Positions 18,822-61,227 are shown, numbered from the stretch's first letter. The stretch is 64,000 bases of DNA from an uncultured Candidatus Sumerlaeota bacterium (GCA_964389675.1 CAYMEV010000008.1:43084-107083); one strand, 5' to 3'. The notes: a model not told the origin generated them from the sequence alone. Numbers and translations: made by a program.

Positions 18822-18825
18822 CAGG

Positions 18826-19359: not shown

Positions 19360-19555
19360 ATTTATCCCCCTTTATTTCAGCTGTAAAAAGATTATTCAGC
19401 ATAATGATAAAAGTCAAAATCTTTTCACTTCAATTACTGTATTAAAAAATTTTCTTTATTATTACTGAATTTTATATTAAACGGTCTTTATTTCAGAAGA
19501 AAGGCCTGGTTTTATCCTTATCCTTTTTTTAGAGGAAGCGGAAACTAAATTTTTA

Positions 19556-19583
19556 TTGAAAGAGCCTGAAAGGCTGGTATAGT
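19556..19583 (+). promoter_or_regulatory. Putative sigma70-type promoter for trkAH
   Basis: TTGAAA (19556-19561), 16 nt spacer, TATAGT (19578-19583) preceded by TG (extended -10), about 40 nt upstream of the trkA ATG. Confidence 0.45.
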
Positions 19584-19623
19584 CCAGTTAATAATTATTT
19601 TTAAGTAAAGCGGGTGCAGGGCT

Positions 19624-41802: not shown

Positions 41803-42951
41803 CTATTTTTTATCTCCGGTAATATCCCTTATATGCTCCAGGATCCTTATAATATTCCCTTCTGCATCAAAAATCGGGTATGATCTTGCATCTATCCATA
41901 TGCCGTATTTATCAAGGTACTTGATTACCTTTGCGGGCTTTTTTGTAGCAATGACCTCCCTTGTGGCACATTCTTCACATGGCCTGTCCTGCCCGATAAG
42001 CTCCCAGCATCTTTTTCCGTCTATATCCGATGATGATGCATTCAGGAATTCATAGCCCGCCTTATTATAACGGATAACCCTCTGATCTATGTCCTGAATC
42101 CCAAGTATATCAGGAATGGCATTAAAGACTGCCTCCAGTGTATCTGCTGTTTCCTTGTGGGAGGCGATCAGGTCTTTGAGCTCAAGCTCAAGCTTTTTCC
42201 TCTCGGTTATATCAGCTGCAATATGTATGACATTCTCTATAATGCCTGACTCATTGCAGACCGGCATGCATGATACGAGGTAGTATCCCCCGAGGACTTC
42301 CATGTATATCTCAGTAGTCTCTATGCCCTTTGATTCAAAAATGTGCTTAAAAGGGCATCCGAAGGGTGGCTTACTGCTTTTGGGGCTGTGGAAGACCTCC
42401 CAGCATTTCATACCGCAGATATCCTTATTTCCGTCTTTTAAGAGAGACCTCATTCTTTCATTATAATCCAGTATATTATTCTCAGCATCCATAATTACTG
42501 CCAGATAGGGTATGCTGTTGAAAACTGCTTCCCAGTAGCCTGAAAGGTCACTGGCCTCCTTCTCTTTCTTTACAGTTTCAGTGGAATCGCTGAAAAAGCC
42601 TGCTATATGGATCTTTTCACCCGAGTTTATCAGGGATGTATTTATATCAGCATATATGATACTGCCGTCACTCTTCTTAACAGGTATATGCCTTGCAGAT
42701 CTCAGCTTGCCCTTCAGCAATGATTCTATCATCAGAAGAACGGTATTGGCATACTCGGACGGATGAATGTCTGTTACTTTAAGTTTAAGCAGGTCCTTCT
42801 CTTCATAGCCGAGCATGATGCATATTGATTCATTGGCAAACAGTATATCCTTATTCCTGGGGTCTGCTATCAGTATGCCCTCTGATGAATTTTTAAGGGC
42901 ATCAAGAGCCAGTCTGCCGTCAAATATGCTGTCTAACGGGATTTTTTCCAT
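41803..42951 (-). CDS. Multi-PAS domain protein with no output domain
   Basis: Three PAS/PAC-like units ('EGILIAD...FANESICIMLGY', 'FNSIPYLAVIMD', 'FNAIPDILGIQD...HIRDIT'), ending right after the last PAC. Start placed at Met39 of the track ORF (41803-43065); the upstream extension looks non-coding. Confidence 0.8.
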   Translation of the reverse strand: MEKIPLDSIFDGRLALDALKNSSEGILIADPRNKDILFANESICIMLGYEEKDLLKLKVTDIHPSEYANTVLLMIESLLKGKLRSARHIPVKKSDGSIIYADINTSLINSGEKIHIAGFFSDSTETVKKEKEASDLSGYWEAVFNSIPYLAVIMDAENNILDYNERMRSLLKDGNKDICGMKCWEVFHSPKSSKPPFGCPFKHIFESKGIETTEIYMEVLGGYYLVSCMPVCNESGIIENVIHIAADITERKKLELELKDLIASHKETADTLEAVFNAIPDILGIQDIDQRVIRYNKAGYEFLNASSSDIDGKRCWELIGQDRPCEECATREVIATKKPAKVIKYLDKYGIWIDARSYPIFDAEGNIIRILEHIRDITGDKK

Positions 42952-43246
42952 AGTGATTAAAAATTTTATGCCTAAATTATCTATTTTACAATAAAAATAT
43001 TTGATTAACTGATCAGTTTTTTCTTTCTTTCGTCTGCCAGTGTTCTGCATCAAAAAGACAGACATGGCTTATATTTCAGGCCTGGATGCACTGGCCAAAC
43101 TGCCCCGAAGCCCTGCCTGCTTTTTTGCAGGTTATCAGCAGGGCATTCGCCCGCCTGATAAGGCCAAAAATTTATGTTATGGATTTTTTCCCCATTTTGA
43201 TATATATACAGATCAATAGTAAAAAATTTAACTGGAGGATAGCATT

Positions 43247-44218
43247 ATGGACCTGAAATCTTTACAGATCGGCAGGGCAGCAGGCATTGTAATGAAAACG
43301 CTTCCAATATCGGCAGTAAGGCTTGGTGCTCTTCTTGTATTCTGGATCATAGCGATCATATACCTTGCAGTTGTCGGCGGGATAGCATGGCTTACAGGGC
43401 AGGCAGTGCCCTTTATCGGGGTGATAATATTCATAATCGGCATCGGCGGGGTAGGCTTCCTTTACAAGCTTGCGAGGGATTATGTCCTTTATATGATAAA
43501 GGCGGCTCATATAGCTGTAATTGCCGAGATCATACACAAAGGAAAGGATATACCTGTCACAGCCAGTCAGCTTGCATACGGAAAAGACCAGGTAAAGAAG
43601 CGCTTCGGCGAAGCAAGCGTGATGTTTGCCGTTGATAAGATCATAAATGGGGTTATCAGGGTCTTTACATCCGCTGTCTACAGAATAACATCCTTCCTTC
43701 CAGGAAATATCGGGCATAATATAGCGGGCATCATAAACAGGATCATAAAATTCTCACTGAGCTATATTGACGAGGCAATACTTGCAAGGACATTCTGGCT
43801 TGACAGCGGTTCAGTATGGGCAAATGCAAAAGACGGTGTCATACTCTACGGAATGGTATGGAAGCCTATACTGATGAATGCAATAGCCCTCATGCTTCTG
43901 TCATATATTCCTTTTGCTGTTGCAGTATTACTGCTTGTAGCTCCGGTAGGGGGAGCGATCTGGTATATGACATCCCCCACTATAGGCGGCTGGACTGTTA
44001 TAGCCCTCCTTGTCCTTGCCTACCTTATTAAGGTCGCTGTAGGCGATGCATTTGCCATGGCAGCTATAATCGCCTCTTATCATGATGAGATACAGGGCCT
44101 TGAACCTTCCCCCGAAGTTTCGGCAAAACTTGAAGGCATGAGCGGGAAATTCAGGGAGCTTAAAAAGAAAGCCTCTGAATCACTCGGGTTTGACAAAGGG
44201 GCGGAAAACCAGACTTAA
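43247..44218 (+). CDS. Hypothetical integral membrane protein
   Basis: 323 aa, GGAGG ribosome-binding site upstream, several hydrophobic segments, no recognised family motif. Confidence 0.75.
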   Translation: MDLKSLQIGRAAGIVMKTLPISAVRLGALLVFWIIAIIYLAVVGGIAWLTGQAVPFIGVIIFIIGIGGVGFLYKLARDYVLYMIKAAHIAVIAEIIHKGKDIPVTASQLAYGKDQVKKRFGEASVMFAVDKIINGVIRVFTSAVYRITSFLPGNIGHNIAGIINRIIKFSLSYIDEAILARTFWLDSGSVWANAKDGVILYGMVWKPILMNAIALMLLSYIPFAVAVLLLVAPVGGAIWYMTSPTIGGWTVIALLVLAYLIKVAVGDAFAMAAIIASYHDEIQGLEPSPEVSAKLEGMSGKFRELKKKASESLGFDKGAENQT

Positions 44219-44236: not shown

Positions 44237-45469
44237 TTATCTGCTTTTAATGAGGCTTTTATACCTCTCGGTCCTTGGTATCAGCCTTATTATAAAAGCA
44301 AGTATTACAGCCCCTATGCCGTTCAGCTTTAGTATAAAGCTTATTGGATAGGTATCTGTCAGTATGCCGTTTACTATGAATGCCAGAGGGATTACTGCAT
44401 AGCATACTGCAGAAAGGGCTGCAAAGAACCTTCCCTTTATCTCGTTCGGTACCTCACTCTGAAAGAGCGAAAGCGCATTTGCATTGACCACAATGAACGA
44501 TGAGCCTACAAGGGTGAAGAGAAAGAGCATGAGGTATTTATCTGCAGTTGAGCCTATGGAATAATTCATGAATCCCAGTATAAGGATACCCCAGAAAATT
44601 GAAGAATATACCCTTTTCGGATTTATTTTCATACTCAGGATAAAAGCGGTGATCAGAGAGCCCAGGCCCATAAAGAGCTCTTCATATGCCACCCACTTGA
44701 CAGTTTCCTTCAGAATAAACTGCACTATCATAGGAACATAAAGCACAAGCGGAGCCCCAAAGAAATTAAATACAGCAAAACAGATGATCAGGCTGTAGAT
44801 CGGTTTATTACCGGTAATAAAACCAAGCCCTGTTTTGATATCCTTAAAGAAGGATTTTTTTTCAAATACGACTGAAAGCTTTGTCTTTATAAACAGGATA
44901 AAAATGATCGCAATATAAAAGCTTGCTGAATTTGCAAGTATCGCCCCCTTTATTCCTATGGATGCAATAAGGACTCCCCCGAGGATCGCCCCGAGAACAT
45001 TTGAGAACTGTATTACCATTGCATCGGCGGCAACGGCCTTTGGAAGATGCTTTTCATCCGTTACCAGTATCAGGCTCGAGCTTACAGATGACTCGAAAAG
45101 GGGTACAAATGATGCATTCAGGAATGTAAGGGCATAGAGCAGGTTTATATTGAGGCTGTCATGATACATCAGGAAAAATACGGTAAAGATCACAGCACCC
45201 CTTATGATACTTGAAGCGATCATGCATTTTCTCCTGTCCAGCCTGTCGACGACAGTCCCCCAGAACGGGCCGGACAATACCACAGGCAGGACATTAAAGG
45301 ACATGAGCATACCGAGCTCGAACTTGCTGTGGGCGCTGGTTGATGATATGACATACCAGGCTATCGCAATTGTATAGAACTTATCACCGGCAGCTGATAT
45401 AAGCCTGCCTATGAACAGCTTGCGAAAATCTGGGAATAAATAGAAAGGATGCTCTCTGAAATTAGCCAT
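44237..45469 (-). CDS. MFS efflux transporter (DHA3/macrolide-efflux-like)
   Basis: 12 TM segments; 'GTVVDRLDRRKCMI' motif A; 'VPNEIKGRFF'. Confidence 0.9.
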   Translation of the reverse strand: MANFREHPFYLFPDFRKLFIGRLISAAGDKFYTIAIAWYVISSTSAHSKFELGMLMSFNVLPVVLSGPFWGTVVDRLDRRKCMIASSIIRGAVIFTVFFLMYHDSLNINLLYALTFLNASFVPLFESSVSSSLILVTDEKHLPKAVAADAMVIQFSNVLGAILGGVLIASIGIKGAILANSASFYIAIIFILFIKTKLSVVFEKKSFFKDIKTGLGFITGNKPIYSLIICFAVFNFFGAPLVLYVPMIVQFILKETVKWVAYEELFMGLGSLITAFILSMKINPKRVYSSIFWGILILGFMNYSIGSTADKYLMLFLFTLVGSSFIVVNANALSLFQSEVPNEIKGRFFAALSAVCYAVIPLAFIVNGILTDTYPISFILKLNGIGAVILAFIIRLIPRTERYKSLIKSR

Positions 45470-45471
45470 TG

Positions 45472-48114
45472 CTACCTTTTATCGATAATGTGCTTTATTT
45501 TACCTGTCCTGCCCACCCTTTCAATACTTAAAGGAGGTACTATCCTTATAATAATGCTGTCTATCTGCCTGTCTTTCCAGTCTGATGATATTCCCTTCGA
45601 TGATGCTTTTAAGGCATCAAGTACTCTGTCATTAAAATCACTGTTATCATAAAGGTCTTTGTCCTCACGTTTCAGTTCAATGAAAAATGTAAGCCTTTTA
45701 TTGTTCCCGGCCTGTTCAATATGGATCTGATAGAATGGAGAAAGCTCCGGGAACTGCATAATCGCCCTTTCCACCTCGCTTAAGTAGAGGTTGCAGTAGT
45801 TCAGTTTTATCATATCCCCTGTCCTTCCGCGAAGCCTGAACTTCCGGGATGTCCTTCCGCATCCGCATGGCTCGTCAACCCAGTCTATCCTGTCGCATAT
45901 CCTGTATCTTATAATCGGGTGAAGCCTTCTTGAAAGGGTTGTAACAATGGCATCACCATCGTCAATATCCTCAAGGTATGCATAGCTTTCAAAGACATGA
46001 TGCTCGGTATCACGGCAGTGCCTGCACTGGAAGCCTATCGGGCCTATCTCGACGGCTGCATACCCGAATGATGCAACTATATCAGACTTAAAGATCCTCC
46101 TTACATACTCAACATTATTATCAGACAGCATTTCTCCGGCATAGAAGATCTTATCTATCCGGATATCTATCCTGTTGTTTTCAACATACTGAGCAAGAAA
46201 GAGAAGAACGCTAGGGACCAGAAGCATCACATTGGCATTGAATCTCTTCAGATAGGAGATCGTCTGCTCCTCATTCTGGTTTCCCGTCAGCGACAGCACC
46301 CTGCAGCCTGTCTCTTCAAGCCCCTTGTTGACAGCAAGGAATGCTGTCCAGAAAGCGCCTGACCTGAGCAGATTTGCAACAACATCGCCCTTTTCTATGC
46401 CTGCCGCCCTGAAACCGTATCCGAATACCTTCTCCGATTCCTCAAACTCCCTGTATGAATAGCAGACATACTTCATGGAGCCTGTAGTGCCTCCTGCAGA
46501 AAATATATAGCAGTCTTTCGGTTCCATGGTAAGCATATCAAAGTTTTTATCACAGCTGTGCGAGGACAGATGTGATTTCTCAAGGACTGGCACCCTTTTG
46601 AAATCATCAAGTTTGCTTAAGGGAAGGCTTATATTTTTGTAAAACTCCCTGTAGAAGGCAGAATTCTGGGAAACAGCAAGAATATGATTAAGACGGGAAA
46701 GCAGTATAATATCCTTTTCCTTTTTTTTAAGGAATTCAAGGCCGAAATGCATTACAGGCAGGTCCTCGTATGCCACCTGCTTTATAAGGAGCTGTGCTAT
46801 ATGCACTCCGTCATGAGGAGACCTTGGATCGTGAACGCTTGACATGCTCCCCGGTTTGCAGAACCTCAGTACCCCGGCATTTATGAATTCCCTGGATATG
46901 TCCTGGATACCCTTTTCCCCTCCTATTGAGACCGTTGAAAGGTAGTATTTCATATACTTTAAATTCCCGCTGAATATTTCCCTGTAATCCTTGATCCTGT
47001 TTATATAAATGGTCCTGTTCAGGGGACTGTCCACAAGGTCACAGTTATTCCTCACAATTATTGTATGATGAGATGTGGTTCCTTCATAGATCTCAGCCCT
47101 GCCCTTAAATGCATCCCACTTTGCCAGCTCCCTTTCCTTTCTTATCTCTACTGCAGGATCGACAGGAATCTCTCCCTGCGGGAAAAGCCTGCCCATATCT
47201 TCAAGGGCTTCATAGAGGTACTTTATGAAAATATCTGTATTTTCTGATTCCTCTGCAAAGATATTCTGACAGCTTGTGCATGCCCTCTGCTCCCAGCATA
47301 CTATATCCTCGGCAAACCCCCGCGCGTACTCACGGAGGGACTCTTTACGCGCATCTTTAAGCAAAAGCCCGAAGCTTATCTTGGGCCCGAAGGGCCATAG
47401 CTCTGTCTTTGCAGAAAGGCCGCTTTTGTAGCTTACAACAGCCTCCTGCCCTCCGAAAAGAAGTATGGCATCGCTGTTCTGCTTTACAAAGCTGTCTATC
47501 TCCTTATCATTCCTGCTCCAGTAGACCATACTGAAATAGGGCATAATAAGCCCTTCTCTGTCCTCTTCCCTGAGAACGCTGCAGAAAATAGTGGGAAACA
47601 GAAAATCCTGCTTTGATACCTTAAGCAGGTTGAGGTTTTTTGTGATAATTCCATAGATAAGGCTGTCTATAGATCCGAGAAACACATTGCCTGCTGCAAT
47701 ATGCGACACAAGGCCTGCAGGTACAGCCCTCGAAAGCAGCGTATGCACCTGGTAGACAGGTTGGTCGAGGCAGTGATAATCTTTCAGAAAGTGAAGCCTC
47801 CCGGAAAGGCTTTCGTAAGACAGCATCGCGGGGATCATTTCAAGCCCCTTCTCCACCATTTTTGGTGAATAGTCTATCAGTGCCGGAAGCTTTTCCTGTA
47901 TCTCCTTATAAAACAGGCTGTCCTTATCAGCAAACCTCCTGCCTGTTCTTTCAAGAAGCCCTATTATATCATCAATGGGCTTTTCATAAAACTCTCTCTT
48001 CTTTTTGCTTATTATGTCCTGTGAGAAAGCAGTCTCAAAATCCCTGATATCCAGTTCCCGCTTCTCTTTGATCTCATCTCCCCATATTACTGGTATAAAG
48101 TCCTGTTTCTTCAT
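45472..48114 (-). CDS. LuxC-like acyl-CoA/acyl-protein reductase fused to a PaaK/F390-synthetase-like adenylate-forming domain
   Basis: N-half: 'HIAAGNV', 'FGGQEAV', 'FGPKISF', 'EQRACTSCQ' (catalytic-type Cys at 47278-47280). C-half: 'SAGGTTG', 'YAGE', 'FGYAAVEIG', 'RYRICD', 'RGRTGDMIK'. Confidence 0.85.
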   Translation of the reverse strand: MKKQDFIPVIWGDEIKEKRELDIRDFETAFSQDIISKKKREFYEKPIDDIIGLLERTGRRFADKDSLFYKEIQEKLPALIDYSPKMVEKGLEMIPAMLSYESLSGRLHFLKDYHCLDQPVYQVHTLLSRAVPAGLVSHIAAGNVFLGSIDSLIYGIITKNLNLLKVSKQDFLFPTIFCSVLREEDREGLIMPYFSMVYWSRNDKEIDSFVKQNSDAILLFGGQEAVVSYKSGLSAKTELWPFGPKISFGLLLKDARKESLREYARGFAEDIVCWEQRACTSCQNIFAEESENTDIFIKYLYEALEDMGRLFPQGEIPVDPAVEIRKERELAKWDAFKGRAEIYEGTTSHHTIIVRNNCDLVDSPLNRTIYINRIKDYREIFSGNLKYMKYYLSTVSIGGEKGIQDISREFINAGVLRFCKPGSMSSVHDPRSPHDGVHIAQLLIKQVAYEDLPVMHFGLEFLKKKEKDIILLSRLNHILAVSQNSAFYREFYKNISLPLSKLDDFKRVPVLEKSHLSSHSCDKNFDMLTMEPKDCYIFSAGGTTGSMKYVCYSYREFEESEKVFGYGFRAAGIEKGDVVANLLRSGAFWTAFLAVNKGLEETGCRVLSLTGNQNEEQTISYLKRFNANVMLLVPSVLLFLAQYVENNRIDIRIDKIFYAGEMLSDNNVEYVRRIFKSDIVASFGYAAVEIGPIGFQCRHCRDTEHHVFESYAYLEDIDDGDAIVTTLSRRLHPIIRYRICDRIDWVDEPCGCGRTSRKFRLRGRTGDMIKLNYCNLYLSEVERAIMQFPELSPFYQIHIEQAGNNKRLTFFIELKREDKDLYDNSDFNDRVLDALKASSKGISSDWKDRQIDSIIIRIVPPLSIERVGRTGKIKHIIDKR

Positions 48115-49253
48115 TTTACCGCTCCGCTCTTTTTGAGTATTTCCTGGGCTGCTATGGCACAGCCTTTATGCTTCTTCGTCCCTCCCCTTCTTACAGACAT
48201 TATATATTTCCCCTTAAGTCCGCACTCACAGTCACTGCCCAGCCTTACAAGGTCAGTGGACAGTATTGCCTGGTTAGGCTGTGCGGTATTATAAGGGGTA
48301 TAAAGGCAAAGGAGCCCTTCCTCACCCAGGGGTTTCTCCCTTTTGTCAAGAGGGTCTATAATTTTAAGCCTTGAGTAGACTGGTATATGGAAATGGCCCT
48401 TCCTGCATGCAATATATGGAACACCATGCTCTGCCATTCCGAATGTATCCCTTATATTCTCCGGGTCAATTCCCAGGTATTTATTTATATACTGCGTAAA
48501 CTCTTCATGGGTCATAGGCTGGCCCAGGTGGTTCTTCCATCCTCCCCCTGAAATTATGAAGCTTTTCGGGTGAAGCCTCAGGCTGCCTTTGATCTTTCTT
48601 ATCTTTTCAGTTAGTGCGCATATAAATGCAGGAAAACCAAGAAGCCTTACCGGCCCGTCGCCGGAAAGCTCTATCAGCCTGTCTGCCCATCTTTCAGCAT
48701 CAAACCTGAATTCACCCGTATCCTTATCCTGCTGAAGCACCCAGTTTTCGCTCTTTATGGGGGTGAGGTCCCTCTTATGCATCTGGCTCCATGAGGTGCC
48801 GATCCTGTGGCGGTCAGAAGGCTCATAAGACATCAGGAAACAGTGGACAGGCTCATCGCTTACACATCCAATTGCATTAAAGCAGTTGTATGCAAGCCTT
48901 TCAAGCCTGTCAAGGCTGGGCCTGTCAAGAAAAAGATGTGTTTTCTGCCCCCCGGTCCCCGAGCTGGTCAGTGTTAGTGCAATTTCAGACTCATCGATAC
49001 TGGAAAAACTGTTTATCTTCATGACTCCCACAAAGAGAGGCGGTATTGCAAATACATCATCAATGGAATCTATATCTTCGGGTTTTATGCCTGCTCTTCC
49101 GGCAAGATAGGAAATGAAAGGCTGTCTTTTTATCTGCCATGAAAAATTCTCCCTCATTGCATCAATGAAGGTCTTCTCAATCCTCTCATTCAGTTCATAG
49201 GCATCCTTGTAACTGCATAGAGCATCTATGCTCTTAAACATGTCTTTATTCAT
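48111..49253 (-). CDS. luxE: LuxE-like acyl-protein synthetase
   Basis: 'LTSSGTGG', 'LLGFPAF', 'GGGWK', 'DTFGMAEH', 'ILSTDL', and C-terminal 'KGCA' (acylated-Cys position). Family-level call only; no luciferase genes nearby. Confidence 0.85.
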   Translation of the reverse strand: MNKDMFKSIDALCSYKDAYELNERIEKTFIDAMRENFSWQIKRQPFISYLAGRAGIKPEDIDSIDDVFAIPPLFVGVMKINSFSSIDESEIALTLTSSGTGGQKTHLFLDRPSLDRLERLAYNCFNAIGCVSDEPVHCFLMSYEPSDRHRIGTSWSQMHKRDLTPIKSENWVLQQDKDTGEFRFDAERWADRLIELSGDGPVRLLGFPAFICALTEKIRKIKGSLRLHPKSFIISGGGWKNHLGQPMTHEEFTQYINKYLGIDPENIRDTFGMAEHGVPYIACRKGHFHIPVYSRLKIIDPLDKREKPLGEEGLLCLYTPYNTAQPNQAILSTDLVRLGSDCECGLKGKYIMSVRRGGTKKHKGCAIAAQEILKKSGAVK

Positions 49254-50776
49254 ACTTCCCTGTTCGGGTCCTCCTCTTTAATCAGATTCAGTATATCCCT
49301 GCCTGTCTCACTGTCGATTGAAATGCTGTCATAATCAACCATGCAGTTGTTTAAATACTGCATTATAAGCTGATCCCTGCCCTCATGCCCAGGCATGATG
49401 CCGGCAAAGAAAAATCCCATCTCTGCCAGGTGTTCCCCTGCAGAATATGTAAAGGGTTCAGTAAGGTCGAGATATATGTATATACTGTCTATCCTGTTAA
49501 GGCAGATATTCTTTATATGCTTTTTCATAGAATCAAGAAAATCATATCCGTATTCAATAACCCTCATAGTGGCTGTATTATATACATCGGCTTTTACTGA
49601 AATATTTGTTTTTCTATTTAAATCACCCACTACTCCGGGATTGGAGAACTCCTTTTCAAAGCCGAGGCTGTCATATATTTTTCCAGCTATTTCTGCATAC
49701 CTTTCAGGAATATACTTTTTCTTATCAACCCTCTCTTTCAGCTGACGGTAGCAGACAAGCAGGGTCTCCTTCCCCGTTTCCCCCTCTTTTATCTCCTTGA
49801 AGGCCATGGGTGAAATTCTCAAAAGAAGCAGGGCAGTATCCTTCATCCCGAACCTGTGGGCGGACTTCTGCGAATAAACATGGCTTGTCACAGCCTGAAC
49901 AAAAATTCCCTCAAGAGATAACTCACAAGCCTTCCTGATGAGCTCTTCCGTCATCCTCTCAAGGCATTTCATTCCCCTGAACCTGGGATATACAAAAGCA
50001 ACGCCTATCTCTGCAATATTATCATGCTCCCCCATGGTCAGAGCTGCATGGCCCATGAGCTCTTCCTCCTCCTCAGTTACTGCAACTGCTGAGATCATCC
50101 TGCCTGTCCTGTTGAGCTCTATTACCCTTTCAGGATAGTAGATGGTATCATAAATATATGTATAGCCATAGGTAAAAAAGACGCACTTGGCAAGCTCTAT
50201 CGCCTCACTGTCCCTGATAGCCCTGATATAATAATCAACCGGCTTGATATCAGTTTTTCTTGTTTTTTCCTTGATCTCTGTTTCAGCCTTATGGAGGCTT
50301 TCATCCATAATAAACTTATAGATTATTATCTCTCTGCCCCCTTTTCCAAGGTTCCTGAACTCAACCTTGTCCATCAGGCTTTTAAGGTAGTATATCCCTA
50401 TCCCTTCTATATTATCCTCTGTATGCTCTTTTTCGGGGCTGTACCTGTCAATTGTCTCCAGATCGTACGGGACACCCTTCTCATTGATCTTTATCTCAAA
50501 GCCATGACTGTCCCTGAGGAAAGATACCTCTATATCTATATCTGTAAGCAGGTTTCCCTGATAGTTAATCAGTTCTTCAAGCAGGTCTTCAAGCCCGAAC
50601 TGCAGCCTTCTTATAAAATCCTCCTCCATTCTGAAAAGCCTGAAGAATTCATCCGCTGCTGATAGAACAAGAGGAAGTAATGAAGATTCTGCAGGTATTA
50701 TGATCCTTGCCCTGTCTGGTTTTCTGTCCATTTTGAGCCCCTTTGCTTTAATCTGGTACTGGAATAAATTTATCAT
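49250..50776 (-). CDS. HATPase_c (RsbW/anti-sigma-like) - GNAT acetyltransferase fusion
   Basis: N-terminal 'GIGIYYLKSLMDKVEF' G-box-like segment; 'AEIGVAFVYPRFRGMK' GNAT motif A; second GNAT-like half. Probable start at MDRKP (about 50731). Confidence 0.75.
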   Translation of the reverse strand: MINLFQYQIKAKGLKMDRKPDRARIIIPAESSLLPLVLSAADEFFRLFRMEEDFIRRLQFGLEDLLEELINYQGNLLTDIDIEVSFLRDSHGFEIKINEKGVPYDLETIDRYSPEKEHTEDNIEGIGIYYLKSLMDKVEFRNLGKGGREIIIYKFIMDESLHKAETEIKEKTRKTDIKPVDYYIRAIRDSEAIELAKCVFFTYGYTYIYDTIYYPERVIELNRTGRMISAVAVTEEEEELMGHAALTMGEHDNIAEIGVAFVYPRFRGMKCLERMTEELIRKACELSLEGIFVQAVTSHVYSQKSAHRFGMKDTALLLLRISPMAFKEIKEGETGKETLLVCYRQLKERVDKKKYIPERYAEIAGKIYDSLGFEKEFSNPGVVGDLNRKTNISVKADVYNTATMRVIEYGYDFLDSMKKHIKNICLNRIDSIYIYLDLTEPFTYSAGEHLAEMGFFFAGIMPGHEGRDQLIMQYLNNCMVDYDSISIDSETGRDILNLIKEEDPNREV

Positions 50777-50870
50777 AAACAGCTGGTAATTAAAATAAAA
50801 AAACTATAAAGCTGTTCTCTGAATTTAGGTGTTATTACCCGGTAAAATAATGCAAATGCACAAATGTGCA

Positions 50871-50902
50871 AAAAAAAAGGCAGAGGCATAAACGCCCCTG
50901 CC
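50871..50902 (-). terminator. Intrinsic terminator downstream of Kelch paralog 1
   Basis: Minus strand GGCAGGGGC-GTTTAT-GCCTCTGCC followed by a run of T. Confidence 0.75.
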
Positions 50903-50920
50903 CTTATAATTATAATACCC

Positions 50921-53419
50921 TTACAGTAGCCACTCCAGCCTTGTCTTGTATTCATCGGTCACAATACCTTCGGTTGATATGGCCTCAAGTATATACATAA
51001 AATCTGAGCCGTTCTTGACATGGTCTGTAAAATAATATGCATGTGGCACTGAAGATGTTCCATGGCCCTCAATGATGCTGTCATTGAGCTTTACAGGAGT
51101 ATAGGAGACAAATGGGCTTACCTTGCCCATTTTCAGCCTGTAGAGGTTGAATCCGAGGTTATCTGTCTCTGTAACTGTCTCCCACTGAATGTTTACAGTA
51201 TTCCCCATTCCCTGTGCAGTAAAGAAATTCAGCTCAACTGGGAGAGGAAGCTCTCTGTATGCAATATTGTTTGATGAGTCAGTATCAAAGGGCAAAATTT
51301 CAGTCAGCTCGACGGTAATGATATAGGCTATCGGATCAAGGCCTGTGGTATCCCATTCAAAAGAACCCTGTATATAATTTCCTGGTTCAATCAGAGCAGG
51401 GACGGTCTCCTCGTCAATCATCTGAAGATCGATACCGGGTTGCAGGCTGTAATAATATGCAATATGAAAACCCGTAACATTTTCATCCCCTAGATTATAA
51501 ATCCTGGACCAGATCGTTACTATATCGCCAGGAGAAGGCGGCGTACCGTCATACCAGATATCTGATGCAACTATGGATGCATCAGGGCCGGGCTGTGCGC
51601 AAAGCTCATACTTGCAGCACCTGACAGTCGGGTTAAATCCCCCTGTATCACCGCAGAACTTATAGACAACACCGTTAAGCGAAGCAGCAGCCGTCCTGTA
51701 AACGGGTGTTGTATCATATACACCTCCGTCAACCCATATGCCTGTTGCAACATCATAATAGTATGAAGCATCATATACTGTTCCTCCTGTTCCGCCTACT
51801 ACCCACAGCTGATGATCCCCGCCGTAAATATTATGGGTATATCCCATACCCATTGTTGCTTCCATTAAAGGTGGGATATCTGCATTCTCTGCATTCCAAA
51901 CCCCTGTCGTGAAATCATAGCATTGTGTGCTTGTGAGGTATACACTCGAAGAATTAACACCGCCTACTACAGCGAGCATCTTATGCCCTGTTCCTGGATC
52001 GGTGTATATGAATGCAGCATGAAAGTCCCTGACTGATGTAAAGTTTGGCAGGGGAGCAAGCCATGCATTGGCTGCCGCATCATAGACATATACAGTTGAA
52101 AGGTTGCCTCCTCCGGGAACAGTAGCACCGCCTGTCATATAGAGGTATCCGGTATCAGGGTCTTCAACCCATGCAGGAGCCCAGATGCCTGTTTGTGCCG
52201 GAGGGGTACCTGATGGTGTTTCGTTAGTCCATACATTTGTGTCCATATTATATGACCAGAGCCCTGTAAATCCAGAAGTTGTGGCATCACCGTAAATATA
52301 TGCCTTGTTCTGGTAGACAGCGCCGGTGCTTGCATAGCACTGCATAAATGTCGAATCGGGTACTGTTGCCCATGTATCGGCAACAGGGTCATATGTCTTT
52401 ACAGTAGGATCAGCGCTGTATCCTGCTATAGACCAAAGAAGGCCGTTATACGGTACAACTACATTATCCATTCTTGCTACAGGCTCATTGGCAATTGAGA
52501 CCCATCCCCCCATTATCGTCACCAGGTTGACCTGTGCAGAATCCGAGTAACCGCCTCCGCTTACATCAACCACTCCTGTTACAGTGGTTCCTGCAGGCAC
52601 ACCCGGATCAGATGTAAGTGTTACTATAATATCCTCTGAGATACCGTCATCCAGTGTTATGGATGCAGGGCCTGTCAGGCCGCCGTTTCCTGTAGATACA
52701 CTGTAGGCGAAGTTGAATGTATTTGAAGAACCTGTCTGATTCAAAACAGTAAGTGTGTAATCAACAGGCACGTTCGGGCAGTCTTCAGCGCTCTGGGCCG
52801 GAGGCAGGAGATATACTCCAGGCTCAACAGAGCATGCAGGTATGACTGCAGGCGCAGCAAGCGCTTCATCGCAGTCATCATACCCCGGAGGGGTATAGCC
52901 GTCTGAACTGCATGGCCAGTGAGGCGCACTGCCATAACCATCTCCGTCATAATACCAGGAAACATTGGCATCCCCTGCTGCTACACCCGGTGTGGCATTG
53001 ACTGTATAATAGCAGTAGCACGTACAGCCTCCTGAACTCTGGTATCTCGGATGGTAGATCTGCACGACATTGGCAGGATCCTGCACTGTGACCTCAAGGG
53101 TTCCCCAGGAACCGTTATCACACAACTCACCTGAAACTGTGACGCTGTTTACGGTCCAGTCTGAGGGAAACTGCAGCCACAGCTCATAGACATACTCCCA
53201 GTCAGGCGAGTATGTCTCAGAATAGAATATAAAATCTGCCGCAACTCCCTGCGTATAGCATTCTGATCCCCCGCTGCTCGGGTCAAACATCACATATGAG
53301 CCTGTAAGTGACTTAGGGCCGTTCTCATCTATGCCTGTCGGGGCAACAGCCTTGCCTCCAAGTACCGGAAGCGACAGGACAAGAAGCATCAGAATCGAAA
53401 ACAAAAAGACTTTCCTCAT
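50921..53419 (-). CDS. Secreted Kelch-repeat / CARDB-like surface protein, paralog 1
   Basis: Signal-peptide-like N-terminus; Kelch-like blades ('GLLWSIAGY..YDPVADTW'); CARDB-like 'PSPGDIVTIWSRIYNLG'; C-terminal 'PLPVELNFFTA...WETVTETDNLGFNLYR' domain. Confidence 0.8.
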   Translation of the reverse strand: MRKVFLFSILMLLVLSLPVLGGKAVAPTGIDENGPKSLTGSYVMFDPSSGGSECYTQGVAADFIFYSETYSPDWEYVYELWLQFPSDWTVNSVTVSGELCDNGSWGTLEVTVQDPANVVQIYHPRYQSSGGCTCYCYYTVNATPGVAAGDANVSWYYDGDGYGSAPHWPCSSDGYTPPGYDDCDEALAAPAVIPACSVEPGVYLLPPAQSAEDCPNVPVDYTLTVLNQTGSSNTFNFAYSVSTGNGGLTGPASITLDDGISEDIIVTLTSDPGVPAGTTVTGVVDVSGGGYSDSAQVNLVTIMGGWVSIANEPVARMDNVVVPYNGLLWSIAGYSADPTVKTYDPVADTWATVPDSTFMQCYASTGAVYQNKAYIYGDATTSGFTGLWSYNMDTNVWTNETPSGTPPAQTGIWAPAWVEDPDTGYLYMTGGATVPGGGNLSTVYVYDAAANAWLAPLPNFTSVRDFHAAFIYTDPGTGHKMLAVVGGVNSSSVYLTSTQCYDFTTGVWNAENADIPPLMEATMGMGYTHNIYGGDHQLWVVGGTGGTVYDASYYYDVATGIWVDGGVYDTTPVYRTAAASLNGVVYKFCGDTGGFNPTVRCCKYELCAQPGPDASIVASDIWYDGTPPSPGDIVTIWSRIYNLGDENVTGFHIAYYYSLQPGIDLQMIDEETVPALIEPGNYIQGSFEWDTTGLDPIAYIITVELTEILPFDTDSSNNIAYRELPLPVELNFFTAQGMGNTVNIQWETVTETDNLGFNLYRLKMGKVSPFVSYTPVKLNDSIIEGHGTSSVPHAYYFTDHVKNGSDFMYILEAISTEGIVTDEYKTRLEWLL

Positions 53420-53866: not shown

Positions 53867-56377
53867 TTAAAACAGCCACTGAAGCCTTGTCTTATACTCA
53901 TCCGTTGCAATACCCTCTGTTGATATGCACTCAAGTATGTATATGTATTTTCCGCCGTTCTTGACATGGTCGGTAAATGAATAGGCCTTCGGCTCTGATG
54001 ATGTGCCCTGGCCCGCGATAAGGGAATCATTCAGCTTCACCGGGCTGGGTGTCACAAACGGGCTTATTTTGTTTCCGCTTATTCTGTAGAGGTTGAAGCC
54101 AAGGTTATCTGTCTCTGTGACTGTTTCCCACTGTATATTCACTGTATTTCCCATCCCCTGGGCAGTAAAGTAACCAAGCTCGACGGGAAGAGGGATCTCT
54201 ATCTCAGCTGTATTATTTGTAAGGTCCACATCTGTCGGTAGAACATCTGTAATCTCCACGGTTATAATATAGATCCTGGGGTCCATGGCTGCATCAGTAG
54301 CCCAGTTTATCATTACATCGGTGTATTCCCCGGGCAGAATATCGGTAAATGCAACTGTGTCAATCAGCTGGAGGTCAACACCCGGCTGGAGGCTGTAGTA
54401 AAAATTGGCATTTCCGCCAGTAATTGGAGCATCACCCATATTATGGACCCTTGCAGTAACATCAACAATATCTCCTGGCAGGGGTGCTCCCGGAAGGAAG
54501 CTGATATCGCCTGCAGTGATACCTGCATCCGGGCTCTGGGCAACATCACAGCGCAGAAACTTGCTGCATGTTCCAGCAGCGTTATTGCCGCTGATCTTAT
54601 ATACAACTCCATCAAGGGCAGCGGCTGACAAACGATATGCCTCGGTTACATGAGGGGCTCCTGCACTTACCCAGGTGCCTGCATTAAAGTCATAGTAGAC
54701 TGATTCATTATAAATCATACCACCGCTTGCTCCCGCAACAATCCACAATTCATGCTCTCCAGCAAAAACATTATGGGCATACCCCATTCCCCACCATGTT
54801 ACAGGAAGGGCGGGCAGGTCAGCATTCTCTGCATTCCATACACCTGTCGTAAAGTCATAGCACTGAGTGCTGGAAAGCTCATTACCGCTGCTCTCTACAC
54901 CCCCTGCCACAGCAAGCATCTTATGCCCTGAGACAGGATCGGTATATATATATGCAGCATGGAAGTCCCTCGCGGTTGTGAAGTCCGGAAGGGGTGCAAG
55001 CCATGCATTGCCGGCCGGGTCATATACATAAACGGCTGCAAGGTTTCCACCGCCTGGAATTGTAGCTCCGCCTGTCATGTAGAGGTAACCCGTGTCAGGG
55101 TCAGCAACCCAGGATGGTGCCCATATGCCGGTCAGAGCAGGAGCGGTGCCGGAAGGCGACTCATTTGCCCATACATTTGTATCCATATTATAGGACCACA
55201 GCCCTGCAAAGCCGGAGGTAGCATCTCCGTAGATATATGCCTTGTTTCCGTAAACACCGCAGGACCTGGCATAATTAGTCTGGAAAACAGAATCGGGAAC
55301 AGTGGTCCATGTGTCTGTATCAGGGTCATAGTACTTGACGGAGTTTTCGGTTCCATAACCCGCAATCGACCAGATAAGCCCGTTATATACAGCAAGGGAA
55401 TTATCCTGTCTTCCACTGTCCGGTTCTGTCGCAATATCATACCATCCCCCCCCCCAGGCTATCTCCTGGCTTACTGAAGCAGAATCAGTATATACACCAA
55501 ATTCGGCTTCTATTGAAGCTGTGACGATCTCACCCTCGGCAAGCCAGCCGGCTGATGTAAGGGTTACAGCAAAGTCCTGGTCCACTCCGGTTCCAAGGTA
55601 TATCTGGTCAGGGCCTGTTACGGTGCCGTAGCCTGAGGTGATCAAATAGCTCAGTGAAATGGTGCCGTCTGTGCCAGTATCATTCTCAAGGTTAAATACA
55701 AAATCCGTAGAAACACCGGGACAATCAACAACATCCTGATCTTCAGGAGTGATATATATATTTGGTACAAAGACAAAAGGAGGCACAACCGCCTGCGGAT
55801 TTACCATCTCATCGCACGGGAGCAATCCCGGAGGTGTATAGCCGTCATCACTGCACGGCCAGTGGGGTGTCCCGCCATAACCGTCACCATCATAGTACCA
55901 TGATACATAAGCATCGCCTATGTTAGAACCGGGTGTGACATTCACCATATAATAGGCAGTGCAGTGGTCAGTACCGGACTGATACCTTGCATGCAGGATA
56001 TCTACGGTATTTGCAGGAGTCTGTACAGTATAGGTCAATGTCCCCCAGCCTGCTCCGCTGTCACATATCGGAGTCCCTACAACTGAAACGCTGTTTACCA
56101 CCCAGTCTGCAGGGAACTGAAGCCATAGATCATAGACATACTCCCAGTCGGCAGTGAAGGTCTCAGCCCTGAATACCAGGTCATTGGCGACACCGGCAGT
56201 ATAGCCTGTCTCACCCCCCGCGCTCGGGTCAAAAACAACGAATGAGCCGGAAAGCCCCTTTGGCTCTCCAAAGTCACAAAGCCCTGTTGTTACCTCTCCC
56301 GCCTCAGAAATCATAGCAGAAAAAGTCAGGGTCAACAGCATACAAACTGCAAACAAAATGGAAACAATCCTTTTCAT
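53867..56377 (-). CDS. Secreted Kelch-repeat / CARDB-like surface protein, paralog 2
   Basis: Colinear with 50921-53419 along its length: signal peptide, Cys-containing N-domain, Kelch blades, CARDB-like domain, 'PLPVELGYFTA' C-domain. Confidence 0.8.
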   Translation of the reverse strand: MKRIVSILFAVCMLLTLTFSAMISEAGEVTTGLCDFGEPKGLSGSFVVFDPSAGGETGYTAGVANDLVFRAETFTADWEYVYDLWLQFPADWVVNSVSVVGTPICDSGAGWGTLTYTVQTPANTVDILHARYQSGTDHCTAYYMVNVTPGSNIGDAYVSWYYDGDGYGGTPHWPCSDDGYTPPGLLPCDEMVNPQAVVPPFVFVPNIYITPEDQDVVDCPGVSTDFVFNLENDTGTDGTISLSYLITSGYGTVTGPDQIYLGTGVDQDFAVTLTSAGWLAEGEIVTASIEAEFGVYTDSASVSQEIAWGGGWYDIATEPDSGRQDNSLAVYNGLIWSIAGYGTENSVKYYDPDTDTWTTVPDSVFQTNYARSCGVYGNKAYIYGDATSGFAGLWSYNMDTNVWANESPSGTAPALTGIWAPSWVADPDTGYLYMTGGATIPGGGNLAAVYVYDPAGNAWLAPLPDFTTARDFHAAYIYTDPVSGHKMLAVAGGVESSGNELSSTQCYDFTTGVWNAENADLPALPVTWWGMGYAHNVFAGEHELWIVAGASGGMIYNESVYYDFNAGTWVSAGAPHVTEAYRLSAAALDGVVYKISGNNAAGTCSKFLRCDVAQSPDAGITAGDISFLPGAPLPGDIVDVTARVHNMGDAPITGGNANFYYSLQPGVDLQLIDTVAFTDILPGEYTDVMINWATDAAMDPRIYIITVEITDVLPTDVDLTNNTAEIEIPLPVELGYFTAQGMGNTVNIQWETVTETDNLGFNLYRISGNKISPFVTPSPVKLNDSLIAGQGTSSEPKAYSFTDHVKNGGKYIYILECISTEGIATDEYKTRLQWLF

Positions 56378-56900: not shown

Positions 56901-58124
56901 TTACTCGCTTCTCAGGGCTACAATCGGGTCAAGCAGTGATGCTTTGTAGGCAGGATAAACACCGAAGAACATACCTACAAAAAAGGAAAAGAAGAAGGAT
57001 ACAACTATGGAAATCCACGATATTGAAAGCACCCAGCCTGAAAAATAAACGAGCCCCCATGCTATGAGTATCCCTATGATGATCCCCAGTATCCCTCCTG
57101 CAGTTCCCAGTATGGATGCCTCAATGATAAACTGAAGCATGATGTCCTTCCTTAATGCCCCCACAGACATTCTCAGGCCTATTTCCCTGGACCTTTCCTT
57201 TATTGCAATAAGCATGATGGAAAGGACACCTATACCGCCTATAAGGAGGGATATCCCAGCAATACTGGTTATAAGCATGGTAAATGATTCCGATGTCTCT
57301 TTGTGTGCCTCTGCGATCTCATCCTGGGTTACAACGGTAAAATCATCCTCCCTGTCCTGCATGACAAGCCGGTGATTATGCCTCAGCACATCCTCAATAT
57401 CATCTATTACAGAAGCCTGCCCGCTGTTTTCAGAAAGCTGGATGTATATACTGCGCAGGTAATCCCTGTTAAATACCCTTCTGAATGCTGTATTTATCGG
57501 TATGAATATATAATTGTCCTGATCATTTCCCTCAACATCAGAACCCTTTTCCTTCAAACAGCCTATGACCTTAAACGGTATATTGCCCACCCTTATGGTC
57601 TCCCCTACAGGGTCCAGATGCTCAAACAGCGCTTCTTTCACCGTATGGCCAAGGACAGCTACCCTGCTGTAGGATATATCCTCCTGGTATGAGAAGAAGC
57701 TTCCGCTTTCTATCTCATAGTTCCGTATCTCTTTATATTCAGGTGATACTCCTACAACTGTAGTTCCCGTTGTTACATCCCTGTACTTTATATTAAACCC
57801 GCTGGTCTGATAAGGGGATATGTTCTTTACTGCAGATATCTGCATATAAAGGCTCTCAACATCATCCAGTGAAAGGGTCCTTGGTGTCCTGCCGTAAAAT
57901 CTTCTCCCGCCGTGCTCTACAGGCACTCCTGCATTGACTATCACCAGGTTCCTGCCCATATCGGATATCTTGTCAAGGATCTCCTTTTCTGCGCCCAGGC
58001 CTATTGAAACCATGACAATGACGGCAGATACACCCACAATTATCCCTATAAGCGCCAGGACAGTCCTCATCTTATGCCCTGTCAGCTGTTTAGTGGATAT
58101 TAAGATACTCTGGGCGATCTTCAT
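56901..58124 (-). CDS. MacB/FtsX-family ABC permease
   Basis: 'RTVLALIGIIVGVSAVI', periplasmic domain, 'ISLLIGGIGVLSIM...ERSREIGLRMSVGA', 'ASLLDPIVALRSE'. Confidence 0.92.
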   Translation of the reverse strand: MKIAQSILISTKQLTGHKMRTVLALIGIIVGVSAVIVMVSIGLGAEKEILDKISDMGRNLVIVNAGVPVEHGGRRFYGRTPRTLSLDDVESLYMQISAVKNISPYQTSGFNIKYRDVTTGTTVVGVSPEYKEIRNYEIESGSFFSYQEDISYSRVAVLGHTVKEALFEHLDPVGETIRVGNIPFKVIGCLKEKGSDVEGNDQDNYIFIPINTAFRRVFNRDYLRSIYIQLSENSGQASVIDDIEDVLRHNHRLVMQDREDDFTVVTQDEIAEAHKETSESFTMLITSIAGISLLIGGIGVLSIMLIAIKERSREIGLRMSVGALRKDIMLQFIIEASILGTAGGILGIIIGILIAWGLVYFSGWVLSISWISIVVSFFFSFFVGMFFGVYPAYKASLLDPIVALRSE

Positions 58125-58128
58125 TCTT

Positions 58129-60085: not shown

Positions 60086-60105
60086 TGTATAAGCTCCTTA
60101 TTTTA

Positions 60106-61176: not shown

Positions 61177-61227
61177 TGCGTTTTCCTCTCTATAACAATT
61201 ATTTTTTTATCAGCTAAAATATTCATT

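Follow-up and report, generated by a model that had tools for sequence, protein, structure and literature searches.

The four-gene operon described here, from an uncultured Candidatus Sumerlaeota bacterium, is probably a remote variant, without LeupC, of the non-NRPS pathway that makes the peptide aldehyde leupeptin, an assignment made with moderate confidence from homology of the encoded proteins. Leupeptin is N-acetyl-Leu-Leu-argininal, a protease inhibitor. The exported product of the operon would most likely be a small N-acylated peptide aldehyde, and light production is most likely unrelated to it.

Operon organization and encoded proteins

The operon was delineated by ORF calling in the window, the whole stretch of 64,000 nucleotides that was analyzed. 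The features discussed below are:

50776-44237, minus strand: four ORFs forming one operon
49250-50776, minus strand: gene 1, 508 aa; RsbW/SpoIIAB-like ATPase, GNAT and conserved C-terminal domain
50318-50698, minus strand: gene 1 residues 27-153, HATPase_c_2 (anti-sigma-factor kinase-like) domain, Pfam E 7.5e-10
49292-50230, minus strand: gene 1 residues 183-495, GNAT plus C-terminal domain, the LeupD-homologous part
48111-49253, minus strand: gene 2, 380 aa; LuxE-family, LeupA-like ATP-dependent ligase
48159-48161, minus strand: Cys365 codon of gene 2, putative acyl-thioester site by homology to LuxE
45472-48114, minus strand: gene 3, 880 aa; LeupB-like protein that joins a LuxC-type thioester reductase to a PaaK-type adenylating domain
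47278-47280, minus strand: Cys279 codon of gene 3, aligned with the LuxC active-site Cys
44237-45469, minus strand: gene 4, 410 aa; MFS exporter of the DHA3/EntS/Mef-like type
50876-50905, minus strand: intrinsic terminator with a 13-bp stem (7 G-C pairs), a 4-nt loop and a following TTTTTTT
50777-50875, minus strand: AT-rich intergenic stretch, presumed from its position between terminator and gene 1 to hold the operon promoter

A sequence-only reading of this DNA had described four co-oriented genes, and ORF calling recovered this layout with 4-nt overlaps at 49250-49253 and 48111-48114 and a 2-nt gap at 45470-45471. The terminator that it had placed at 50871-50902 is essentially the same feature as the hairpin at 50905-50876. 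This hairpin lies just 3' of the stop codon of an upstream 832-aa Kelch-repeat gene, to which it belongs and which it sets apart from the operon. An Rfam L20_leader match over the terminator scored 28 bits, below the gathering score of 58.7, and was taken as chance. A promoter consensus scan gave no more sites than were found in shuffled sequence.

The true start of gene 1 is more likely the second ATG at 50734 ('MDRKPD'), because an AAAGGGG ribosome-binding site lies upstream of it, the alignment with homologues begins only near residue 20, and the structural model shows residues 1-18 as disordered. The N-terminal ATPase domain shares its fold and most ATP-binding motifs with the RsbW/SpoIIAB kinases. 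Its model gave Foldseek TM-scores, normalized by target length, of 0.78-0.86 with SpoIIAB (1L0O, 1TH8) and RsbW (6M37), and the GHKL ATPase motifs (N-box, G2-box and the acidic Asp or Glu residue of the G1-box) are kept across the gene 1 family. The RsbW/SpoIIAB kinases control sigma factors, whereas the gene 1 domain, a candidate kinase, is fused to what appears to be a biosynthetic acyltransferase. The Pfam match to GNAT is weak (residues 230-310, 18.7 bits for a cut-off of 20.7); AlphaFold2 models with pLDDT values of 83 and 90.7, together with Foldseek searches, confirmed a GNAT fold. The nearest folds are tabtoxin resistance protein, phosphinothricin acetyltransferase, ArsN, Rim-type ribosomal-protein acetyltransferases and SpeG, all of which are N-acetyltransferases for amino acids, other small amines or protein N-termini. 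In the gene 1 family, the R-G-x-G motif that binds acyl-CoA (R267, G268) hardly varies.

The gene 2 protein matches Pfam LuxE (E 4e-31) and chain E of the LuxCDE fatty acid reductase (PDB 7XC6; E 8e-23), with Cys365 aligned to the acyl-carrying Cys of LuxE. This Cys lies within an invariant HKGCA motif and is kept in 52/52 relatives. Gene 3 combines a LuxC domain (residues 45-440, E 1e-62) with a PaaK-like ligase domain (residues 464-880, NCBIfam PaaK E 4e-42), and its PDB matches include 7XC6 chain A (E 4e-25) and 4R1L (E 3e-32). Cys279 and the P-loop glycines G541 and G542 are conserved in all 74 relatives compared, and Lys872 in 73 of the 74. The earlier statement that the LuxE-type and LuxC-type cysteines are intact thus agrees with the codons found, the alignment of both residues with the LuxE and LuxC sites and their invariance in relatives. 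Gene 4 matches the profiles MFS_1 (E 2e-29), MFS_3 (E 5e-24) and TIGR00900 (E 1e-55), and the pump falls in exporter families (EntS, Mef, Tap).

Relationship to the leupeptin locus and predicted product

Leupeptin synthesis is directed by leupABCD and a transporter, and leupABCD with an MFS transporter occurs in Klebsiella michiganensis/oxytoca, Photorhabdus and Xenorhabdus (PMC8283571, PMC11480411). The leup locus consists of genes for an MFS transporter, a LuxE/PaaK-family protein, an acyl-CoA reductase, a PaaK-family ligase and a GNAT (bioRxiv 10.64898/2026.08.25.747093). According to PMC11212599, which cites Li et al. 2020, the amide bonds are formed by separate AMP-dependent ligases and the aldehyde by the reductase; as summarized there, aldehyde formation is the last step, after N-acylation and amide ligation. 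The roles of the Leup enzymes were assigned here from such second-hand summaries of Li et al. 2020 and from domain counts.

The operon had been put forward as a novel pathway; protein by protein, however, the cassette is homologous to the characterized leupABCD and MFS set. Gene 2 aligns over its full length with Klebsiella LeupA (34% identity, E 3e-66), including the Cys (KGCA against RSCA). Residues 132-772 of gene 3 align with the 803-aa Klebsiella LeupB at 23% identity (E 5e-38), and the two proteins have an identical Pfam architecture (LuxC plus AMP-binding) and share the QxAC, P-loop and C-terminal GK motifs. With hhalign, residues 183-495 of the gene 1 family profile match residues 3-291 of Klebsiella LeupD (98.9% probability, E 1e-17), and the GNAT part is 32% identical to LeupD by BLASTP. 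The two loci share a LuxE-family ligase with a C-terminal Cys, a LuxC-PaaK-type fusion and a GNAT extended by the same C-terminal domain, and follow a non-NRPS logic of discrete ligases. In Klebsiella as in the window the LuxE-like gene lies directly 5' of the LuxC-ligase gene. An MFS gene also adjoins each locus, but the two pumps differ (see below).

The differences from leup are also considerable. The Leup and window proteins are only 23-34% identical, and the GNAT gene is first in the window and last in leup, while the MFS gene is last in the window and first in leup. Gene 1 has an N-terminal RsbW-like ATPase domain in addition to the parts found in LeupD. The window host is an uncultured diderm and the cassette relatives are mostly anaerobes, whereas leup occurs in Enterobacterales. 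The window has no counterpart of LeupC, which is a separate protein and the third ligase of leup: tblastn with such a protein from a related locus (L022) matched only the gene 3 domain, and Pfam scans detected none. The window MFS belongs to another subfamily than that of leup; although gene 4 is translationally coupled to the cassette, it has no significant similarity to the Klebsiella leup MFS (E 0.66) and, by this comparison, is not orthologous to it. The missing LeupC and the non-orthologous pump count against a leup-type assignment. Three relatives of the cassette (L020, L022, L073) do carry a third ligase that resembles LeupC (36% identity), and LeupC-like genes are found on Streptomyces and Salmonella plasmids. 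The Streptomyces plasmid cluster is 53%, 40% and 39% identical to LeupA, LeupB and LeupC and 32% and 24% identical to window genes 2 and 3, so that intermediates bridge the distance between leup and the window.

From homology, we propose a pathway of four steps. The LeupD-like GNAT of gene 1 would N-acylate an amino acid using an acyl-CoA donor, probably acetyl-CoA, and the LeupA-like ligase of gene 2 would join a second amino acid at the expense of ATP. The adenylating domain of gene 3 would then activate the C-terminal carboxylate, and the LuxC domain would take over the acyl group as a thioester on Cys279 and reduce it with NAD(P)H. The resulting aldehyde would be exported by the MFS pump. 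The roles of genes 2 and 3 may also be divided differently, with gene 2 handing the acyl group on to the reductase through Cys365, in the manner of LuxE, while amide bond formation falls to the PaaK-like domain; the bond count would be unchanged.

Since the window encodes two adenylating domains against three in leup, a product with one residue fewer than leupeptin is predicted, probably an N-acyl dipeptide aldehyde. Such a compound could be a covalent protease inhibitor or the precursor of a pyrazinone-type signal. No substrate specificity is readable from the sequence, and as the Leup proteins are only 23-34% identical, the compound made may be very unlike leupeptin. The leupeptin/antipain-type NRPS systems of Streptomyces (bioRxiv 10.1101/2020.10.26.356543, PMC11212599) yield the same predicted product class, an N-capped short peptide with a C-terminal aldehyde. 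The machinery of the window is unrelated to theirs and is devoid of condensation, thiolation and SDR-type reductase domains, so any likeness of the products would be convergent.

Recurrence of the cassette and competing explanations

The gene set recurs in other genomes, contrary to the possibility raised earlier that the four genes would not co-occur elsewhere. A core of LeupD-like, LeupA-like and LeupB-like genes was found at 48 of 50 assessable loci, which span many phyla, most of them anaerobic. Of the assessable loci, 26 of 27 in clade A and 22 of 23 in clade B have the LeupD-like gene, and 27/27 and 22/23, respectively, the LeupA-like gene. The exporter gene accompanies the cassette at 14 of the 27 assessable clade A loci. 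Gene order is permuted from phylum to phylum, and triple fusions of LuxE, LuxC and ligase were found (P0072; L035). Many hosts, such as Synergistota and Clostridium, are anaerobes that ferment amino acids.

The sequence-only reading had seen a compact biosynthetic operon rather than bioluminescence, and this is supported by the way in which a LuxE/LuxC-type reductase is combined with an additional adenylating domain, a GNAT and an export pump. It had listed luxA, luxB, luxD and luxG as missing; Pfam scans covering the window's non-nested ORFs of 150 aa or more (short ORFs nested in larger genes being excluded) likewise detected no bacterial luciferase (luxA/B), LuxD-type acyltransferase or LuxG-type reductase, and neither LuxD nor LuxAB is among the conserved neighbors of 80 related loci. 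Its proposed chemistry, in which LuxE and LuxC reduce a fatty or simple acid and the PaaK-like domain and GNAT modify the aldehyde or a derivative before export, appears unlikely. Genes 2 and 3 do belong to the LuxE and LuxC families of the LuxCDE reductase (7XC6) and retain both thioester cysteines, and fatty acyl thioesters are known substrates of LuxC-type enzymes (PMC12041015; bioRxiv 10.1101/2025.08.11.669332). However, in architecture all three enzymes resemble LeupA, LeupB and LeupD more closely than they do LuxE and LuxC. The LuxC part, in contrast to that of LuxCDE, is fused to a second adenylating domain, an arrangement shared only with LeupB, and a GNAT and exporter are attached to the set. 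The folds nearest to this GNAT act on amino acids, small amines and protein N-termini, and no LuxD-type acyltransferase, ACP, transaminase or other gene for fatty-aldehyde tailoring was found here or in the conserved cassettes. Given the homology to leup, an N-acylated amino acid or peptide is a likelier substrate than the fatty acid used by LuxCDE, and the suggested order of aldehyde formation followed by modification is probably reversed, as the account of leup in PMC11212599 has the aldehyde formed last.

We give still less credence to a catabolic or detoxifying cassette that activates arylacetic or other organic acids, reduces them to aldehydes and pumps these out, while the GNAT acetylates a toxic amine. 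The best match of the ligase domain to phenylacetate-CoA ligases (NCBIfam E 4e-42; PDB 4R1L), the amino acid fermentation of many hosts and the occurrence of gene 1 homologues with a MATE pump as sole partner would fit such a function, but the conserved cassette includes no paa, ior or aldehyde/alcohol dehydrogenase genes. The tight linkage of all three genes, the LeupD-like GNAT among them, and the existence of triple fusions suit an assembly line better, the homologous leup operon is biosynthetic (PMC8283571, PMC11480411), and the pump falls in the exporter families named above. A regulatory system, in which gene 1 is mainly a partner-switching protein acyltransferase, with for example a STAS protein or a sigma factor as target, and genes 2 and 3 only supply or remove the acyl donor, seems slightly less probable again. 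It is suggested by the protein-binding kinase fold of the RsbW/SpoIIAB-like domain, the Rim-type protein N-acetyltransferases among the fold matches, the coupling of stand-alone gene 1 homologues to STAS genes and the large size of the gene 1 family, most of which lies outside leup-like contexts. Yet the ATPase domain is dispensable, being missing at 12 of 27 assessable clade A loci, at all 23 in clade B and in LeupD; protein acylation leaves the thioester reductase and exporter with no obvious role, and LeupD-type proteins work in small-molecule synthesis.

Possible partner-switching context of the ATPase domain

The HATPase domain, on whose role the sequence-only reading made no comment, is the most unusual part of the cassette. 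It is missing from the homologues of Clostridium, Vallitalea and clade B as well as from LeupD. The family of ATPase-acyltransferase fusions comprises at least 1,379 clusters at 50% identity, with many members outside leup-like operons. Some gene 1 homologues adjoin MATE pumps, M23 peptidases or a GH3 and ATP-grasp pair and have no LuxE/LuxC genes nearby, so this acyltransferase family is not tied to leup-like pathways.

Genes for STAS and PP2C proteins adjoin the cassette in the same orientation at three loci (L019, L022, L031). At L099, where the gene 1 homologue stands alone, its start overlaps with a STAS gene, and another homologue (L101) has STAS, RsbW-like and SpoIIE genes beside it. 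Tblastn found no STAS or PP2C gene in the 64-kb window. Such genes are common in these phyla, and some of the adjacency to cassettes could be due to chance.

The RsbW-like domain probably subjects the gene 1 acyltransferase to a partner switch operated by STAS proteins and PP2C phosphatases. Tentatively, and with considerable doubt, we suggest that the domain is a working partner-switching receiver. Peptide aldehyde synthesis would then be turned on and off at the protein level through a STAS protein and a PP2C phosphatase, a previously undescribed output of anti-sigma-type signaling. As a separate and equally tentative point, the LeupC-less leup-like cassettes would make up a large group of non-NRPS routes to peptide aldehydes, spread over anaerobic phyla not yet surveyed for them.

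Organization of the operon and its genomic surroundings

The operon consists of four genes lying head to tail on the minus strand, and its three enzyme genes span 5.3 kb. ORF calling recovered the co-oriented frames described in the sequence-only reading with the same junctions, two 4-nt overlaps and one 2-nt gap. The terminator that was proposed to insulate the operon was likewise found as a strong hairpin with a T-run.

50776-49250, minus strand: gene 1, ORF of 508 aa
49253-48111, minus strand: gene 2, ORF of 380 aa
48114-45472, minus strand: gene 3, ORF of 880 aa
45469-44237, minus strand: gene 4, ORF of 410 aa
50905-50876, minus strand: strong hairpin with T-run, terminating the upstream Kelch-repeat gene

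The start of gene 1 is probably at 50734 rather than 50776. A search for regulatory RNA gave a single sub-threshold L20_leader match, which lies on the terminator. Analysis with Pfam and NCBIfam assigned HATPase_c_2 and a weak GNAT match to gene 1, a LuxE domain to gene 2, a LuxC domain (residues 45-440) and a PaaK-like ligase (464-880) to gene 3, and an MFS pump of the EntS/Mef/Tap type to gene 4. The LuxE- and LuxC-type cysteines had been described as intact; Cys365 of gene 2 and Cys279 of gene 3 indeed align with the thioester-carrying cysteines of the LuxE-LuxC complex (PDB 7XC6), the roles of which are given in PMC12041015. Both are invariant, Cys365 in 52/52 relatives of gene 2 and Cys279 in 74/74 relatives of gene 3. 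The ligase part of gene 3 has a P-loop Gly-Gly conserved in 74/74 relatives and a catalytic Lys conserved in 73 of them. Pfam scans of the window's non-nested ORFs of at least 150 aa detected no luciferase, LuxD or LuxG, as the sequence-only reading had stated.

Directly upstream of the operon lies a Kelch beta-propeller gene (50921-53419, minus), a position that is kept in L001, the locus most closely related to the window. A paralogue follows at 53867-56377 (minus). Both proteins are ca. 835 aa long with signal-peptide-like N-termini and share a conserved C-terminal segment of ca. 80 aa resembling a sorting domain. On the other side, a 323-aa multi-pass membrane protein without Pfam match (43247-44218, plus) is encoded convergently with the MFS gene, with 18 nt and no hairpin between the stop codons; it is syntenic and 84% identical in L001 and absent from the cassettes of other phyla. 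Also syntenic in L001, at 61% identity, is a 420-aa protein with three PAS domains only and no output domain (41803-43065, minus). At 4072-17628 (minus) there are three tandem paralogous giants of 1222, 1272 and 1302 aa, each with a Ser/Thr kinase, an AAA_16 ATPase and long TPR arrays, followed by a 592-aa protein with two kinase domains. An efflux operon at 56901-62508 (minus) encodes two MacB-type permeases, an ABC ATPase, an HlyD-type adaptor and a TolC-like outer-membrane protein, which indicates a diderm host. A separate Eis-like GNAT is encoded at 62709-63581.

Relation to the leupeptin operon and the proposed product

Leupeptin is N-acetyl-Leu-Leu-argininal. Its synthesis is directed by leupABCD and a transporter (PMC11480411, PMC8283571). 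In a passage of PMC11212599 that cites Li et al. 2020, the amide bonds are attributed to separate AMP-dependent ligases and the aldehyde to a reductase. According to a Klebsiella genomics preprint (bioRxiv 10.64898/2026.08.25.747093), the locus codes for an MFS transporter, a member of the LuxE/PaaK family, an acyl-CoA reductase, a ligase of the PaaK family and a GNAT. The literature found on LuxC/LuxE-like clusters, or on partner switching together with GNAT, did not describe the cassette, and only this preprint provided the link to leup. Word-indexed protein searches with gene 3 and with the LuxE-like profile did not return the Klebsiella Leup proteins. The Klebsiella locus was recovered from metagenome contigs by a scan with the published leupA primer (PMC8283571), which is out of frame with the leupA ORF.

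Gene 2 shares 34% identity with LeupA (378 aa, LuxE family) along the entire length (E 3e-66), and the cysteine is kept in LeupA. LeupB (803 aa), like gene 3, is a fusion of LuxC and an AMP-binding domain and aligns with gene 3 residues 132-772 (E 5e-38). For LeupD (305 aa), hhalign against the gene 1 family profile gave 98.9% (E 1e-17) over gene 1 residues 183-495, so the two proteins share the GNAT as well as the unannotated C-terminal domain. In contrast, the window MFS is unrelated to that of Klebsiella leup, and the stand-alone PaaK-like ligase LeupC has no counterpart in the window. Judged from these alignments, the cassette is a distant homologue of the leupeptin pathway that lacks LeupC and carries an ATPase domain. 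A LeupC-like ligase, 36% identical to LeupC, occurs in the comparison loci L020, L022 and L073.

A Streptomyces plasmid cluster with the order PaaK-like ligase, MFS, GNAT, LuxE-like ligase and LuxC::ligase has 53%, 40% and 39% identity to LeupA, LeupB and LeupC and, by sequence, is intermediate between the cassette and leup. A Salmonella plasmid bears a close leup copy. The leup-like Streptomyces cluster described above, which includes a LeupC-like ligase (L090, plasmid of Streptomyces sp. NBC_00158, 719-10257), adjoins three tandem I36 peptidase-inhibitor genes; these neighbours fit a theme of protease inhibition, but their position may also be a coincidence.

To form leupeptin, an acetylation, two amide bonds and one activation of a carboxylate with its reduction are required, which corresponds to a single GNAT, three adenylating domains and a single LuxC domain. 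In the window there are two adenylating domains, again with a single GNAT and a single LuxC domain. We infer from this count a single N-acylation, one amide bond and one reduction step, and predict as product an N-acyl dipeptide aldehyde that the MFS pump would export. One of the adenylating units (gene 2 or the gene 3 ligase) would form the amide bond and the other would feed the reductase; either assignment predicts the same product length. The LuxE-type cysteine of gene 2, also present in LeupA, would suit a relay to the LuxC cysteine. The presumed N-acylation is chemically sensible since a free amino aldehyde self-condenses. With the gene 1 model, the nearest Foldseek matches of the GNAT domain were tabtoxin resistance protein, phosphinothricin acetyltransferases, ArsN, Rim-type ribosomal-protein acetyltransferases and SpeG, which are N-acetyltransferases for amino acids, other small amines or protein N-termini. 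These fold matches fit an amino acid substrate, but they discriminate poorly.

The sequence-only reading had proposed that the LuxE/LuxC pair makes an aldehyde or a derived product, which is then modified and exported. A fatty-aldehyde pathway of this kind is less likely because the architecture is that of Leup rather than Lux and the cassette has no accompanying fatty-acid handling genes. The scores of the PaaK-like ligase domain are the one observation that suggests a catabolic or detoxifying function for aromatic acids, a role that leaves the tight coupling with a LeupD-like GNAT unexplained. In the wider family gene 1 may acylate proteins, but a reductase and an exporter do not fit this function in the cassette, nor does the absence of the ATPase domain from many cassettes. 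We prefer a leupeptin-type peptide aldehyde pathway as the most likely reading; the product and substrates named for it are predictions.

Recurrence of the enzyme set in other genomes

Relatives of the gene 3 fusion of ca. 880 aa occur in many phyla, and more than 2,400 clusters (90% identity) match the LuxE-like family profile at E 1e-5 or better. We fetched 80 loci from species-representative genomes and compared them by tblastn and ORF clustering. Loci with 40% identity to gene 3 or more form clade A, among them those of Clostridium spp., Haloimpatiens, Vallitalea, Synergistota, Bacteroidia, Geobacter, Syntrophobacteraceae and Holophagales. Loci at ca. 30% identity form clade B, among them those of Riflebacteria/Ozemobacteraceae, Armatimonadota, Wallbacteria and Elusimicrobia. 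Counts were restricted to loci with at least 3 kb on either side of the fusion gene (27 in clade A and 23 in clade B). Of these, 26/27 in clade A and 22/23 in clade B had a gene 1-type acyltransferase, and 27/27 and 22/23 had a LuxE-like gene. The anticipated recurrence of the four-gene set thus held for the three enzymes in most loci but only partly for the MFS pump, which was found in 14 of the 27 clade A loci and in none of the 23 of clade B. In hhalign (96.4%), the clade B acyltransferase (ca. 395 aa) proved homologous to residues 177-501 of gene 1.

The gene order is 1, 2, 3, 4 in the window, 3, 1, 2, 4 in Synergistota including the complete genome of Aminirod propionatiphilus, and 4, 1, 2, 3 in Vallitalea and Syntrophobacteraceae. 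This permutation between phyla favours functional coupling over inherited synteny. In P0072 and L035 the LuxE, LuxC and ligase parts are fused in single polypeptides of ca. 1,300 aa.

Some individual cassettes have further neighbours. In A. propionatiphilus (CP074691, L082) a gene for a secreted papain-family protease (Peptidase_C1, 1151 aa) lies at 16678-20133, directly downstream of the cassette MFS on the same strand, and a pair of STAS and RsbW-like genes is found 6 kb downstream. The neighbours of the Synergistota cassettes were rejected as substrate clues, being a GTPase and SmpB, which are unrelated. A Bacteroidota contig (L085, 8569-9906) has a phosphatidylserine-decarboxylase-like gene (PSDC and PS_Dcarbxylase, 445 aa) between the LuxE-like and LuxC::ligase genes, which suggests a variant product with a decarboxylated residue. 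We discarded it as a general clue since it was present in only one of the cassettes examined.

The ATPase domain of gene 1 and the significance of the cassette

The N-terminus of gene 1 is an RsbW/SpoIIAB-like ATPase domain according to Pfam and Foldseek. LeupD lacks it, as do the homologues from Clostridium and Vallitalea and the whole of clade B, which marks it as an accessory domain. The nucleotide-binding motifs are conserved, and in L019, L022 and L031 the cassette is adjoined by co-oriented STAS and PP2C phosphatase genes. In L099 (6682-9150) a stand-alone ATPase-GNAT homologue is overlapped at its start by a STAS gene and at its end by a gene for an M23 peptidase; the contig of homologue P0119 has the same M23 pairing without the STAS gene. 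The homologue in L101 is flanked by STAS, RsbW-like and response-regulator-SpoIIE phosphatase genes. Because of the conserved motifs and the adjoining STAS and PP2C genes we think that the acyltransferase would be under partner-switching control via its ATPase domain. The 64-kb window itself contains no STAS or PP2C gene.

The family with the ATPase, GNAT and C-terminal domains comprises at least 1,379 clusters (50% identity) at E 1e-30 or better, and members without LuxE/LuxC genes lie beside a gene for a MATE pump or for an M23 peptidase, or beside GH3 ligase, ATP-grasp and MFS genes. In L088 (4122-9446) a distant homologue of gene 1 (23% identity) comes after an ATP-grasp ligase gene, a gene for an acyl-acid amido synthetase of the GH3 family and an MFS pump gene, which looks like another cassette type composed of ligases, acyltransferase and exporter. 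A sequence search of gene 1 against the PDB gave no match. For the C-terminal domain, Foldseek runs on the full model and on a model of the GNAT plus C-terminal part gave matches to single GNAT domains only. Judged by the order of its secondary-structure elements, the domain may be a degenerate second GNAT lobe.

Leupeptin-type aldehydes are potent covalent protease inhibitors, and in Klebsiella they also precede pyrazinone signals. The discrete-ligase route was described from Gammaproteobacteria, and a later paper of the Li et al. group called the leup operon narrowly distributed (PMC11480411). Distant relatives of this route are common in anaerobic lineages, including Clostridium, Synergistota, Bacteroidota, Desulfobacterota-type bacteria, Acidobacteriota, Riflebacteria, Armatimonadota and Elusimicrobia. 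Such cassettes may escape natural-product genome mining because NRPS and PKS domains are absent. The cassette is small and easily expressed, which makes its product directly findable, and the kinase-like domain on the acyltransferase makes it possible to test whether an enzyme of secondary metabolism is controlled post-translationally.
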